Source: Carcharhinus longimanus (Eukaryota). Taken from it: a DNA stretch of 63,970 bases. The number at the start of each line of letters is the position of its first letter. The stretch's first letter is position 1. Positions 3,983 to 56,387 of this stretch are shown here, piece after piece. The notes under the pieces were generated by a model. The model was not told the DNA's origin and searched no databases. It was given only the letters and a program-made list of their open reading frames with translations. A program made the translations under genes and the position numbers. Location of the stretch: positions 22,812,484-22,876,453 of the forward strand of contig JASCQW010000160.1 in NCBI GenBank assembly GCA_030264375.1, in the 5' to 3' direction.

Positions 3983-4375
3983 GATAAAAGCAAATTACTG
4001 CAGATGCTGGAATCTGGAACAAGAAAAAATGCTGAATAATCTCAGCAGGTCTGGCAGCATCTGTAAGGAGAGAAAAGAGCTGACGTTTCGAGTCTAGGCT
4101 TTGACAAAGGGTCATTTGGGCTCGAAACATCAGCTCTTTCCTCTCCTTATAGATGCTGCCAGACCTGCTGAGATTATCCAGCATTTTCTCTTTCAGTTNN
4201 NNNNNNNNNNNNNNNNNNNNNNNNNNNNNNNNNNNNNNNNNNNNNNNNNNNNNNNNNNNNNNNNNNNNNNNNNNNNNNNNNNNNNNNNNNNNNNNNNNTC
4301 GAAACATCAGCTCTTTCCTCTCCTTATAGATGCTGCCAGACCTGCTGAGATTATCCAGCATTTTCTCTTTCAGTT
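3983..4375. mobile_element. Fold-back PLE terminal-repeat derivative, family B, with degenerate hammerhead motif
   Basis: Inverted arms aatgctgaataatctcagcaggtctggcagcatctgtaaggagagaaaagagctgacgtttcgag / ctcgaaacatcagctctttcctctccttatagatgctgccagacctgctgagattatccagcatt. Centre ttgacaaa-gggtc-atttg-ggctc-gaaa-catc. Flanking repeat agagaatca(t/c)tctg at 3969-3982 and 4376-4389. Right arm is duplicated across an N gap. Confidence 0.75.
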
Positions 4376-6955: not shown

Positions 6956-7106
6956 GTAGAAATCCTGGTGTTGGACTGGGGTGGGCACAGTAAGAAGTCT
7001 CACAACACCAGGTTAAAGTCCAACAGGTTTATTTGGAATCACTTGAGGAAGGAGCAGCGCTCTGAAAGCCCGTGATTCCAAATAAACCTGTTGGACTTTA
7101 ACCTGG
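6955..7106. mobile_element. Fold-back PLE derivative, family A, with partial hammerhead motif
   Basis: ccaggttaaagtccaacaggtttatttggaatcac ... gtgattccaaataaacctgttggactttaacctgg inverted arms enclosing tgagga-aggagcagcgctct-gaaa-gccc. Confidence 0.8.
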
Positions 7107-46600: not shown

Positions 46601-47448
46601 TTGAGGCTGGAATATATTCAGTGGACTTTGAGCTAATATTACATATACTTGATCATGTTGCCAATCACGGAGTCCAGATTCTAACAACATTCAATCTCAG
46701 AGTTTACCCTTTGTCACGACTGTAAACTAAAATCAACAGTTAAATAGGTTTGATGAATATTGCCAAAATTCCACACATGCTTTATCATTTGTACAATATT
46801 TCTAAAAATACTTGCTGGACCATTTTATTTGTTTGTTCAGTGTCACTTGACCACCCATGAAATAGGTTCTTTACAAGACCACCACTTAGAAGTGAGTAGA
46901 GTCATTTCAAAACTTACTGCCATATGCTTACACTGCAAGTGAAAGACATTGACTTTTTAGGACAGAATTCATGATCACAAAGGTCTTGTATGTCTCTTAA
47001 GGTGTGTGCTATAATAATTCAAGATATAACTATTTGAAGTTTTAGATCTAGACCAAAGGTCCTCAATGTCCAGTGGATTTTGTCAGCATTGGATAAAATG
47101 ATAGTGCATTGGCCCAATTAAAAATAACAGTGAAGTGATCAGTGTGCACCATTATTAAAAAGAGTAAATTGAACAGCGATTTCCAGCATCCTCACAAGTG
47201 CAGTTAAACAGAAATCAGGAAGCTGCCATCTGAGTTGCATGAGCTTTGCTTTAACAGTATCTTACCAAGAAATTAGGCATCAAAACACATGCAATGGTGT
47301 GAAGTTGCAGAATTACCACTAATACACTCGCAAAACTTAAGATTAGTTCATTCAAATATAAGAGAATTTTTAATAGCGTATGAAGTCTGAATTACTGCAA
47401 AGTGACTACTGTGACACTGAAAATTAACTTTTACAAATTTGGAGTTTT

Positions 47449-47878
47449 AATGCCCTACAGTGCTGGTAATGGTGGAAGTCTGATGGAAGGCCTCCATCTT
47501 ATTTTCCTTCACTTTTTGATACTTTATTTCCAAATTTTAGACAATGTGGTAGATGAAAATCCAGCTCACAATTTAACAGAAATCAAATGTGGCATAATGC
47601 TGCTTAATCCTCTTACATTAACTTGGAAGTAAAAAAACTTGAATATTGCTGAAAAGCAAGACGTGGTGCTGAAGCTTTTCATCTCGCACTCATCAGGACA
47701 AATGCAAGAATGCCAAATTTCATGTAACATTGAATTTGATTTGATTTCTGCAATACTGTGGGCTGGATTTTCATCTACCACATTGTCCAAAATTCAGAAA
47801 TAAAGTATCAAAAAGTGAAGGAAAATAAGATGGAGGCCTTCCACCAGATTTCCACCATTACCAGCACCGTAGGGCATT
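47449..47878. repeat. 140-bp inverted duplication (47449-47588 / 47739-47878)
   Basis: Manual alignment gives about 11 mismatches in 140 bp, no indels, and a 150-bp spacer. Confidence 0.95.
47664..47702 (-). ncRNA. Minimal type I hammerhead ribozyme motif (PLE-type, family C) within a PLE terminal fragment of about 47635-47725
   Basis: Minus strand ugu-c-CUGAUGA-gugcgagau-GAAA-agcu-UC-agca. Both core boxes are intact, stem II is short, and a one-pair stem III closes the palindromic AGCU loop before the UC cleavage site. Stem I is imperfect in this copy. Confidence 0.7.
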
Positions 47879-49244
47879 TTCCCCAGTCATCGATTCCTCC
47901 CATATTTAAATGAAGGTGGAGAGTCGGCCCCAAGAACATTGTTCAATTTCAACCACAAATACTACCAGCTGAAGACAGTCCATCCTTAGACAGCAATAGA
48001 AAGCCCACTGCTGCCAGGTTGGAGAGGGAGCCACGAGTTTTTTATTAATTTTCAAAAATCAGCTACAAATTCTGCTCTGTTTAAAACATCTCCCTCGAGG
48101 CGCTGCAGATCTTTTGTCCTGTGTACGTGCCACTGAACTTTCAGGGGCACAGAAATAGCAGGTTGCATCTGTACAGTGGAGATTCTTCAAGGATGCCACC
48201 CTAAAAACTTCAGGTGGATCAGAAACACAATAGAGTTAGCCAAGGTTTGCCTGAGATCAACTCTAATGAAAACTTTGCACTGTTACTTTTGTTCACACTG
48301 TGCACAATGCTGCAGTTCTCCCATTGCAATGTGCTGCAAGATATGGACTACTGTTGAATGTGTTTTGATATTCACTAAATGCTTATACACTGGTGCAACT
48401 TCAACATTTGATTTTACTGATTTATAAATAGTAGTTGCATAACTAGACTGTCACATCCACTGTTAATTTTTTTATATCTGTAACATTTTTAAGAGTAAAA
48501 ATATACATAAGGTTTATAATAAAATNNNNNNNNNNNNNNNNNNNNNNNNNNNNNNNNNNNNNNNNNNNNNNNNNNNNNNNNNNNNNNNNNNNNNNNNNNN
48601 NNNNNNNNNNNNNNNNNNNNNNNNNNNNNNNNNNNNNNNNNNNNNNNNNNNNNNNNNNNNNNNNNNNNNNNNNNNNNNNNNNNNNNNNNNNNNNNNNNNN
48701 NNNNNNNNNNNNNNNNNNNNNNNNNNNNNNNNNNNNNCAAAATGGCTACATTGGGGAAAAAAGCATCTGCATTGGTTGAACGTAAGAAAAAAATGTTCTG
48801 ATACTGTAAATACAGGAGGGAGCAGTGACTTTGGTTTTAGAAAAATGGGTAGTTGAAGACTGCTCTATGCATCACTTTGACCAAACAGCTCTGTATCAGT
48901 TCTTGTGGAGCTTTGCTTTGCAGAGATTGCTAGTCTGTTTGTGCTCATAATTCATAAAACTGATTGCTCAGCGTTGTCATCTCTTTCTGCAATTTGAAAC
49001 CACTTATCTCTGCATTATGATACAAGTGTGCCTGATGTATGAGGCTGCCAAGAAAGGCAATGAACTGTAGTCCACAAAGGAACATGGACATTTCTCTCTA
49101 TTACAAGCACTGTATGGAAGCAGGCCTCCATGAACCACGACAGTTGGTTAGGGGATTAAACTTTAGCCATTGGCATCATTCTGCATCACACTATAGCCAC
49201 CTAGCAACTGAATGAAATGATCTCCATGGTTGCCAAGTTGGAGT

Positions 49245-50204
49245 CATACTTGGTAGATAGGAAGATGGTTGTGGTTGTGAAGGTCAGTCATCTCAGCTCC
49301 ATGACATCTTTGCAAGACTCCCTCAGGGTAGTGTCCTAGACCAACAATCTTCAGCTGCTTCATCAATGACTTTTCCTCCATCATAAGGTCAGAAGTGGGG
49401 ATGTTTGCTGACAATTGCACAATGTTCACGCCATTCACAACTCCTCAGATGCTGAAGCAGTCCATGTTCAAATGCAACAAGATCTGTACCATCACCCCTT
49501 AACATTCAATGGTGTAACCATCACAGAATCTCCCACTGTCAATATCCTTGGGGTTACCATTGACCAGAAACTTACCTGGACTCACCACATAATCACAGTG
49601 GCTACAAGAGCAGGTCAAAGGTGAGGAATACTGTGGCAAGTAACTCATCTCCTGACTATTCAGAGACTATCCACCATCTACAAGGCACAAGTCAGGAGTG
49701 TGATGGGATACTCCCCACTTGCCTGGATAGGTGCAGCTTCAACAACACTCAGGAAAGTTGACACCATCAGGACAAAGCAACCCACTTGACTGCCACCGCA
49801 TCTACAAACATTCAATCTCCCCACCACCGACAATCAGTAGCAGCAGAGTGACTATCCACAAGATGCACTGCAGCAATTCACCCAAGATCCATAGACAGCA
49901 CCTTCCAAACCCATGACCACTTCCATCTACAAGAACAAGGCAGCACTTACATGAGAACACCACCACCTGCAAGCTCCCCACCAAGCCAGTCATCATCCTG
50001 ACTTGGAAATATACTGCCGTTCCTTCACAGTCACGGAGTCAAAATGCTGGAATTCCCTCCCTATCGGCATTGCGGATCAATCCACAGAACATGGACTGCA
50101 GCGATTCAAGAAGGCAGCTCACCGCCACCTTCTCAAGGGCAACTAGGGATGAGCAATAAATGCTGGCCAGTCAGTGACGCCCATGTTCCAGATTTTAAAA
50201 AAAA
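49245..50204 (+). mobile_element. CR1-group LINE 3' part (RT C-half to tail)
   Basis: PQGSVL..TIFSCFIND...GMFADNC and LTFNGVTITESPTVNILGVTIDQKLTWTHHI; tail caccttctcaagggcaactagggatgagcaataaatgctggcc plus poly(A). Confidence 0.9.
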
Positions 50205-52809: not shown

Positions 52810-55800
52810 AGGGGGGCAATGGCCTAGTGGTATTATCACTTGACTATTAATCCAGAAATCTAGATAATGAATAGGGTTTGAATCCCGCCACAGCAGATGG
52901 TGGAATTTGAATTCAATAAAAAATATATGGAAGAGTCTACTGAACACTATGAAACCATTGTTGATTGTTGAAAAAACCCATGTGGCTCCCAATGTTCTTT
53001 AGGGAAGGAAATCTACCGTCCTTACCTGGTCTGGCCTGCATGTGATTTCAGAACCAAAGTGGTTGACTCTCAACTGCCCTCTGAAATGGCCAAATCTAAC
53101 AATCGCTACAAAGTCTCAACAAAGAAATGAAACCAGATGCACCACCTGGCATCAACCGGGGCACCAGAAAAGACAACAATAAAACAAACAGCCCTGTCGA
53201 TCCTGCAAAGTCCTCCTTACTATCACCTGGGGGTTAGTGAAAAAAATTGGGAGAGCTGTCTCACATAGTCCAGCAACAGCCTGACATAGTCATTCTCATA
53301 GAATCATACCTTACAGATAACACACAGACACCACCGTTGCCATCCCTGGATATGTCTTGTCCCACCGGCTGAACAGATCCAGCAGAGGTAGCAGCACAGT
53401 TGCATACAGTCGGAAGGGAGTTGCCCTGGGAGTCCTTAACATCGACTCTGGATGCCATAAAGTCTCNNNNNNNNNNNNNNNNNNNNNNNNNNNNNNNNNN
53501 NNNNNNNNNNNNNNNNNNNNNNNNNNNNNNNNNNNNNNNNNNNNNNNNNNNNNNNNNNNNNNNNNNNNNNNNNNNNNNNNNNNNNNNNNNNNNNNNNNNN
53601 NNNNNNNNNNNNNNNNNNNNNNNNNNNNNNNNNNNNNNNNNNNNNNNNNNNNNNNNNNNNNNNNNNNNNNNNNNNNNNNNNNNNNNNNNNNNNNNNNNNN
53701 NNNNNNNNNNNNNNNNNNNNNNNNNNNNNNNNNNNNNNNNNNNNNNNNNNNNNNNNNNNNNNNNNNNNNNNNNNNNNNNNNNNNNNNNNNNNNNNNNNNN
53801 NNNNNNNNNNNNNNNNNNNNNNNNNNNNNNNNNNNNNNNNNNNNNNNNNNNNNNNNNNNNNNNNNNNNNNNNNNNNNNNNNNNNNNNNNNNNNNNNNNNN
53901 NNNNNNNNNNNNNNNNNNNNNNNNNNNNNNNNNNNNNNNNNNNNNNNNNNNNNNNNNNNNNNNNNNNNNNNNNNNNNNNNNNNNNNNNNNNNNNNNNNNN
54001 NNNNNNNNNNNNNNNNNNNNNNNNNNNNNNNNNNNNNNNNNNNNNNNNNNNNNNNNNNNNNNNNNNNNNNNNNNNNNNNNNNNNNNNNNNNNNNNNNNNN
54101 NNNNNNNNNNNNNNNNNNNNNNNNNNNNNNNNNNNNNNNNNNNNNNNNNNNNNNNNNNNNNNNNNNNNNNNNNNNNNNNNNNNNNNNNNNNNNNNNNNNN
54201 NNNNNNNNNNNNNNNNNNNNNNNNNNNNNNNNNNNNNNNNNNNNNNNNNNNNNNNNNNNNNNNNNNNNNNNNNNNNNNNNNNNNNNNNNNNNNNNNNNNN
54301 NNNNNNNNNNNNNNNNNNNNNNNNNNNNNNNNNNNNNAGGGAGTTGCCCTGGGAGTCCTTAACATCGACTCTGGATGCCATAAAGTCTCATGGCTTCAGG
54401 TTAAACCAACAAGAGGAAATAACATTCTTGACCTCATCCTTACCAATCTGCTAGCTAAGGATGCATCTGTTCGTGACAGTATCAGTAAGTGTGTCCACCG
54501 CACAGTTCTTGTGGAAATGAAGTCCAGCCTTCGCATTGAGAATAACCTCCATCATGTTGTGTGGCACTATCACCGTGCTAAATGGGACAGGCTTCGAACT
54601 GATCTAGCAACTCAAGACTGGACCATCAACAGCAGCGGAACTGTACTCCAGCACAATCTGCAACTTCATGGCCCGGCATATCTCCCACTCAACCATTACC
54701 ATCAAGCCAGGGGATCAACCCTGGTTCAACGGGGAGTGCAGGAGGGCATGCCAGGAGCAGCACCAGGCATACTTAAAAATGAAGTGTCGACCTGGTGGAG
54801 CTACTAAATAGAACCAAATGGCAAAAACAGAAAGTGATAGACAGAACTAACCGAGTCCACAACCAACAGATCAGACCAAAGCTCTGCAGTCCTTCCTCAT
54901 CCAGTCGGGAATGGTGATGGACAATTAAACAACTCACTGGAGGAGGAGGATTTGCAAACATCCTCAATGAGGGAAGAGTCCAGCACATCAGCACAAAAGA
55001 TAAGGCTGAAGTGTCTGCAGCAATCTTCAGCCAAAAGTGCCGAGTGATGATCCATGTCGGCTCCTCCAGTGGTCCCAGCATCTCAGATGCCAGTCTCCAG
55101 CCAATTCGATTCACTCCACATGATATCAAAAAACAGTTGGAGGTACTGGATACTGCAAAGGCAATGGGCCCTGATACATTCCGGCAGTAATTCTAAAAAC
55201 CTGCCCTCCCCTAACCAAGCTCTTCCAGGACAGTTACAACACTGGCATCTACCCAACAATGTGGAAAATTGTCCAGGTACGTCCTGTACACAAAAAGCAG
55301 GACAAATCCAACCCGGCCAATTACTGCCCAGTCTACTCTCGATCACCAGTAAAGTGATGGAAGGGGTTATCAACAGTGCTATCAAGCAGCACCTACTCAA
55401 CAATAACCTGCTCAGTGACGCCCAGTTTGGGTTTCGTCAGGGTCACTCAGCTCCTGAGGCTCAATGATCTTCAGCTGCTTCATCAATGACATTCCCTCTG
55501 TCATAAGGTCAGAAGTGGGGGTGTTCACCGATGATTGCACAATGTTCAGCACTATTCGCAACTACTCAGATACTGAAGCAGCTCATGTTCAACTGCAACA
55601 AGTTCTGGACAATATCCAGGCTTCAGTTGACAAGTGGCAAATAACATTCATGCCACACAAATGCCAGGCAATGACCATCACCGATAAGAAACACGCAACA
55701 CGCTGCCCCTTAACATTAAATCCCCACTGTCAACATCCTTGGGTAATCACTGACCAGAAATTCAAGTGGACCCACCACATAAAAACATTGGCTACAAGAG

Positions 55801-56387
55801 CATGTCACAGGCTAGGAATACTGTGCGAGTAACTCACTTCCTGACTCACCAGAGCCTATCCAACATCTACGAGGCACAAATCAGGAGTGTGATGGAATAT
55901 TCCCCACTTGCCTGGATGAGTGCAGGTCCAACAACACTCAAGAAGCTTGACACCATCCAGGACAAAGCAGCCCGTTTGATTGGCACCACAGCTACAAACA
56001 TTCAACCCTCCATCACTAGCAACGTGTACTAGCTACAAGATGCACTGCAGCAATTCATCAAAAATCCTCAGACAGCACCTTCCAAACCAATGACCACTTC
56101 CGTCCAGAAGGACAAGGGCAGCAGATACATGGGAACACCAACACCTGCAAGTTCGCTTCCAAGCCACTCACCATCCTGCCTTGGGAATGTATCACCGTTC
56201 CTTCGCAGTTGCTGAGTCAAAATCCTGGAATTCCCTTCCTAACGACATTGTGAGTCAACCCACAAAACATGGACTGCAGCTATTCAAGAAAGCAGCTCAC
56301 CATCACCTTCTCAAGGGCAACTAGGATGGGCAATAAATGCTGGTCAGCAAGCGATGCCCATGTCCCACGAATGAATTAAAAAAAAAG
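52810..56387 (+). mobile_element. Long CR1-group LINE with tRNA-like 5' head, APE endonuclease and RT (decayed, gapped, internally deleted)
   Basis: Head tggcctagtgg...gggtttgaatccc. Endonuclease remnant KLGELSH..QQQPDIVILIESYLTDN...IPGY. RT remnants NPANYCP and KVMEGVINSAIKQHLLNNNLLSDAQFGFRQGHSAP, IFSCFINDIP...VFTDDC, IRSVMEYSPLAW. Tail gggcaactaggatgggcaataaatgctgg...gaatgaatt plus poly(A). Confidence 0.9.

Follow-up and report, generated by a model that had tools for sequence, protein, structure and literature searches.

Minimal hammerhead ribozymes have been described at the pLTR of Penelope-like elements, where they combine the core boxes with a short helix I and a tiny palindromic helix III (PMC4209133). 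They occur mainly as solitary truncated copies, with some close opposite-strand pairs, and according to the account given there single motifs did not cleave and dimers cleaved little. Insertions of EN+ Penelope-like elements, as characterised in PMC8557442 and PMC11167929, are 5'-truncated and carry a tail after the hammerhead, and the inverted repeats described in those papers consist of element DNA and were made at insertion. In the non-LTR retrozyme (10.64898/2026.07.22.740005), tandem units each contain a type I hammerhead. Inverted repeats are also produced by template switching; in the four-point scheme of PMC5453318, the 1-3-4-2 type yields an inverted repeat around a spacer that is itself inverted, and accounts for 23% of 794 filtered human-chimp events.

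The locus presented here lies in a window of 63,970 nt (the whole stretch of DNA that was analysed), which is gap-rich, repeat-rich, vertebrate-type DNA. Its hammerhead is of the kind described in PMC4209133, with core boxes, a short helix I and a tiny palindromic helix III at a pLTR, and the family to which it belongs shares 5' truncation and a tail after the hammerhead with the EN+ Penelope-like insertions. The locus differs from those insertions in that its arms are host DNA, a single element copy occupies the loop, and the arms appear to have been made later than the insertion.

Geometry of the hairpin and its flanks

The sequence-only reading had claimed a 140-bp inverted duplication with about 11 mismatches, and this was confirmed: the arm at 47449-47588 is the reverse complement of that at 47739-47878 apart from 11 mismatches in 140 positions. 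The two arms are separated by 150 nt, and match each other up to a sharp boundary at either end. A search of the 2.68-Gb assembly with the right arm returned two matches only, namely itself and the left arm. As the arm finds only its partner, and as the motif in the loop belongs to a family with 507 pattern matches against 0 for the control, the arm pairing and the motif are real rather than chance resemblances. The right arm (plus strand) is single-copy and is read as the host DNA that was there originally; it passes without a break into the right flank, as it also does in runs X1, X2, X6, X8, X14 and X22. The left arm (minus strand), which is also present in organism D, is read as its derived inverted copy. 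Next to the left arm lies a stretch of about 30 nt of host DNA (47589-47619, minus strand) that is found in organisms F and H between the element and a single arm, in opposite orientation; it would have followed the 3' end of the element and been inverted together with it. On its outer side the left arm cuts an older, unclassified repeat (47121-47445, plus strand) with 27 other genomic matches at 72-86% identity. These other copies extend beyond 47445, where the window copy ends. Together with L127-L145, this segment represents an old unclassified non-coding repeat family of 28 matches with the same range of identities.

Elsewhere in the window, a domain scan of 52 of the 123 stop-free frames of at least 75 aa gave one RT match, at 55458-55829 (RVT_1), and no host domain in the frames scanned. 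Two LINE-like fragments, at 49347-50204 and 55467-56385, are ~82% identical, and a regular-expression scan located, on the minus strand near 55474, another CUGA.GA...GAAAC pattern that could form longer stems. Short palindromes at 388-531, 4021-4192 and 7008-7106 belong to other repeat families and resemble head-to-head Penelope stumps. Identical copies of 50-77 nt are present at 4122-4198/4299-4375, 53415-53466/54338-54389 and 384-434/6986-7036, the first two pairs flanking N gaps, and these copies are likely to be assembly overlaps.

A decayed hammerhead in a Penelope-like stump

The piece in the loop (47620-47722, minus strand, with a tail that may reach 47615) is a 5'-truncated 3' stump of ~100 nt, made up of the pLTR end and tail of an abundant, old Penelope-like element, and contains no coding part. 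A genome search with the spacer gave 2539 first-look candidates, 40 of which were scored. The stump differs from its subfamily majority sequence at 9 of 100 positions, and in the family alignment the hammerhead is preceded by CCAAT and TATA-like boxes and followed by a short tail. A CpG-tolerant 29-nt pattern has 507 exact matches in the genome, compared with 0 for the reversed control; the same pattern with both CpGs intact has one match, and just 1 of 90 fetched copies retains both CpGs and an intact helix I, indicating that the family is old.

The coding capacity of the source family was read from longer copies. An RT piece of locus L187 matched 620 proteins at E<=0.001; RVT_1 was found in all 12 of the proteins scanned, and a weak GIY-YIG domain, below the curated cut-off, in 2 of the 12. 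The order RT, nuclease, hammerhead on one strand was seen in L173, L174, L179, L187, L188, L193 and L195, and same-strand C-terminal remnants were present in 11 of 63 entries of the stump's own subfamily, some of these entries being one place twice. Because of this order in the longer copies, the source family is assigned to the EN+ Penelope-like elements, in which RT and then a C-terminal GIY-YIG domain precede the pLTR on one strand. The hammerhead within the pLTR, the short tail, the 5' truncation and the head-to-head copies are likewise those of that class, head-to-head pairs being frequent elsewhere in the family (e.g., L003, L004, L016 and L026). A Pfam scan of 14 short decayed frames from longer copies gave nothing relevant, and word-indexed protein searches and a PDB search returned no match. 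The earlier recognition of a Penelope-type minimal type I hammerhead is upheld.

The hammerhead occupies 47667-47700 on the minus strand, where the motif CUGAUGA-gugcgagau-GAAA-agcu-UC is present as described from the sequence; its C3 is position 47696, and the base at the cleavage site is 47671. The core elements CUGAnGA, GAAA and UH are all found together with a palindromic helix III, whose loop palindrome is kept. The reading of this ribozyme as near-intact holds for these core letters but not for the helices: a G·U stands at 10.1-11.1 in place of the G10.1-C11.1 pair, and a C·A at 2.1-1.1 removes the first pair of helix I and leaves that helix unclosed. The hammerheads of PMC4209133 differ from the window copy in these same two pairs, and from the family here in helix II, which in this family consists of 2 bp and a 5-nt loop. 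One family copy is present at the locus, so that there is neither a second same-strand copy for a dimeric fold nor a tandem array of the retrozyme type.

In the predicted fold of the 430-nt segment, all eight hammerhead pairs have a probability of 0.0000 and a local competing hairpin hides the CUGAUGA box. Equilibrium folding under-calls hammerheads, and the lost pairs and absent partner therefore outweigh the fold probabilities. An Rfam hammerhead scan gave no match up to E 10, a null result that was given no weight since Rfam covers minimal hammerhead motifs poorly. The window hammerhead is predicted neither to fold nor to cleave, and the suggestion of a working ribozyme in a dsRNA loop is not supported, given the two lost helix-closing pairs, the missing dimer partner and the predicted competing hairpin. 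It is extremely improbable that the hairpin now acts as a working RNA, whether as a long stem with an active ribozyme or as a source of small RNAs. The minus-strand transcript is predicted to fold at -263.8 kcal/mol, three or more related organisms have retained the hairpin, and 7 of 9 transition mismatches would form G·U on the ribozyme strand (p 0.09, not significant); against these points stand the null pairing probabilities, the buried box, the absent partner and uncompensated arm mismatches that are still accumulating.

Related organisms and the origin of the arms

Relatives were compared through 8 of 22 listed runs, with X13 and X17 (14/30 bins covered) left out. Organism D diverges from the window by 2.7%, and organisms F and H by 5.3-5.5%; F and H have most of their variants in common and were counted as a single outgroup. 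Both arms are present in organism D, while F and H have one arm and a flipped stump, in keeping with the second option of the sequence-only reading, that a later inversion captured the ribozyme. In organism F (X14), a single contig maps from 47693 to 47543 on the minus strand and then from 47786 to 48429 on the plus strand, and organism H (X22) shows the same one-contig layout with its joint at 47531/47797. In both contigs (the F joint being 47543/47786), the stump and the 30-nt host piece, in the opposite orientation, run directly into the single arm and the right flank. Over 47490-47538, F has a depth of 0 and H one of 2.28, the latter from 8 nt of the same joint contig, and depth at 47735-47783 is 0 in F; no second arm is seen in either organism. 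The left-flank contigs of both cease to match at 47445, that of F extending 280 nt further.

The spacer piece differs from the window at 9 of 151 positions in F and 14 of 166 in H, as compared with 58/1090 and 59/1079 in the respective flanks (Fisher p 0.70 and 0.15). Since it differs no more than the flanks do, the F/H spacer is taken to be the same stump copy, inverted. At the positions of the arm mismatches, the single F/H arm agrees sometimes with the left arm (47868) and sometimes with the right (47575), and the relatives' letters at 47478 and 47796 restore arm identity, which indicates that the mismatches at these two positions are recent. The arms diverge by 7.9% (CI 4.0-13.6), against ~17% expected for arms of the same age as a stump lying 9% off the majority sequence (p 0.001), although the stump may be younger than this distance suggests. 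A date after the F/H split would agree with the same arm divergence (p 0.14). Both this shortfall, 11/140 against ~17%, and the presence in the relatives of the stump with a single arm argue that the arms are younger than the stump.

The most probable reading, to which we assign a probability of roughly 0.8, is that the arms arose much later than the stump insertion, in one template-switch event during replication or repair. The ancestral order would have been the left repeat, a segment of at least ~200 nt that has since disappeared, the stump on the plus strand, the 30-nt piece, the arm and the right flank; we infer this order and the size of the loss, as no contig of F or H bridges the left flank to the stump. 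The polymerase would have left its template at 47445-47448, a point at which no clear homology was seen, copied the arm, the 30-nt piece and the stump backwards from the opposite strand over ~290 nt, and returned at the start of the arm. The return junction is placed at 47723-47747, perhaps via a 9-nt microhomology at 47739-47747; there is a hint of this in one H contig (depth 14.3) that covers 47728-47732 and, judged from bin depth, extends to ~47747, where the depth of F is 0. A single event of this kind would cover the inversion, the duplication and the loss, and would fall in the 1-3-4-2 type of the four-point model. As in that type, the spacer is inverted relative to the ancestral state, as the opposite-strand joints of F and H indicate, and one arm is ancestral and two derived, a direction taken from the truncated left repeat and a single outgroup lineage. 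The ribozyme would be a passenger, and both arms have likely drifted since like neutral DNA.

If the two-arm state were ancestral, recombination between the arms could have flipped the spacer in F and H, with one arm lost afterwards. The inner F/H arm is mostly like the left arm, as expected from such a crossover, and a single outgroup lineage was examined. This history is nevertheless improbable, as it requires a flip and then a loss ending at the outer edge of the arm, where the old repeat is cut, and with the arms diverged by 7.9% (CI 4.0-13.6) there is little time before F and H split off at 5.3-5.5%; under this history, too, the stump would predate the arms. Less probable than this, and largely refuted, is an origin as a head-to-head insertion pair in which both arms held the same ~170 nt of neighbouring DNA and two independent deletions followed. 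Locus L118 has such a layout within the family, with single-copy flank in both arms, but its arms are 74% identical, with gaps, compared with 92% here, and paralogous stumps in F and H should differ by ~17% from the window copy where 9/151 and 14/166 were observed (p 5e-5 and 0.001).

The proposal that Penelope insertion or its repair produced the fold-back in place of a target duplication is less probable again. At the two ends of the stump there are an inverted match of 6 nt and a gapped one that is weaker, and the endonuclease class of the element cuts both strands in vitro in the work described in PMC11167929. F and H, however, hold the stump, inverted, without a second arm, the arm distance is about half of that expected, the arms are younger than the stump, and the layout recurs at none of 120 other family loci. 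Two further ideas have a negligible probability: that the arms represent the terminal inverted repeats of some multi-copy MITE, and that they are an artefact of assembly. The 12-nt end motif gggctggatttt is common to six other fetched loci and the assembly contains many gaps. The right arm had been described as running into a MITE-like element, but no such family was found and the description goes back to the 12-nt motif. In genome searches that skipped very common words, the arms had, in place of many copies with these termini, two matches, both at this locus, and 47755-48330 had no other copy; no arm or flank family emerged from a sensitive BLAST search of the fetched loci and the window. 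The observation that about 20 bp outside the MITE-like end is also copied was correct (21 nt outside the motif are duplicated), as was the conclusion that the arms are a local duplication rather than two insertions or MITE termini. A fixed palindromic element of ~800 nt was also considered and was rejected when the two-way matches were traced to a palindromic query. An artefact is refuted by contigs of organism D that cover 47000-47696 and 47693-48450, and X1 and X2 contain letters specific to each arm, X1 being possibly the source sample and hence not independent; the hairpin structure is therefore real.

Other family loci and comparison with known systems

The 120 other family loci comprise 29 best matches, L035, which of the natural copies is the best preserved, and 90 of the 507 pattern matches, the 90 having been taken in order from 100 matches listed; two of the 120 are one place. 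Inverted flank duplications of the window layout were looked for at these copies and none was found, nor did any of them have host-only arms around one stump. An inverted match encloses the hammerhead in 26 of the 120, and in 25 of these the arms are repeats, either a second element copy or SINEs. The remaining one, L118, has arms made up of the element and ~140 nt of single-copy flank. L118:810-1779 (G000:C43:72856387-72858415) is a head-to-head Penelope multimer whose outer ends share this single-copy DNA in inverted orientation; the arms have 74% identity, with gaps, over 330 columns and only two genomic matches, and the insertion itself may have produced them as an inverted duplication of the flank. 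In L036:1598-1871 (G000:C1:11135989-11136262), a 274-nt AT-rich single-copy fold-back lies ~15 nt past the tail, with the element outside the arms. Loci L039, L044, L054, L080, L083 and L116 are self-complementary head-to-head pairs of the stump family, with hammerheads on opposite strands, tens to a few hundred bases apart.

Besides the window locus, single-copy fold-backs of at least 130 nt per arm that touch the element were thus found in 2 of the 120 fetched loci, and none of that size was found away from the element in the fetched 2-kb stretches. The two cases, L036 and L118, give a hint of a tendency of long single-copy fold-backs to adjoin Penelope ends. That Penelope-like ends are hotspots for the folding back of neighbouring single-copy DNA, giving long inverted duplications either during insertion (L118) or well after it (the window locus and L036), is unlikely; were it true, dead, ribozyme-carrying retroelements would act as a lasting source of long hairpins newly formed in the genome. 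In the literature searched, which included few subscription papers and no supplements, no description was found of inverted duplications of host DNA at the ends of Penelope elements.

Both parts of the locus, the decayed Penelope hammerhead and the probable template-switch duplication, are of known kinds, and the locus is ordinary. It adds one case to the many hundreds of decayed Penelope hammerheads, enclosed here by a known kind of replication error, and would matter more only if fold-backs prove to be enriched at Penelope ends. What it offers is a tidy, datable template switch of ~300 nt with living one-arm relatives.

The template switch favoured here corresponds to type 1-3-4-2 / 3-1-2-4 of PMC5453318, in which, as at this locus, a new inverted repeat and an inverted spacer replace the DNA between the switch points. 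The ~290 nt copied and at least ~200 nt lost are far larger than the short clusters treated in that study and place the event nearer to the FoSTeS/MMBIR range named there; the ancestral state here, unlike in PMC5453318, is known from unbridged contigs only. The hairpins and miRNAs attributed to template switching in PMC10710096 likewise arise by a single replication error that yields a long stem, and the transposons near them are generally older than the event, as is the stump at this locus. The stem here is 140 bp with a 150-nt loop, whereas the miRNA-like class described in PMC10710096 has stems of 30-55 bp.
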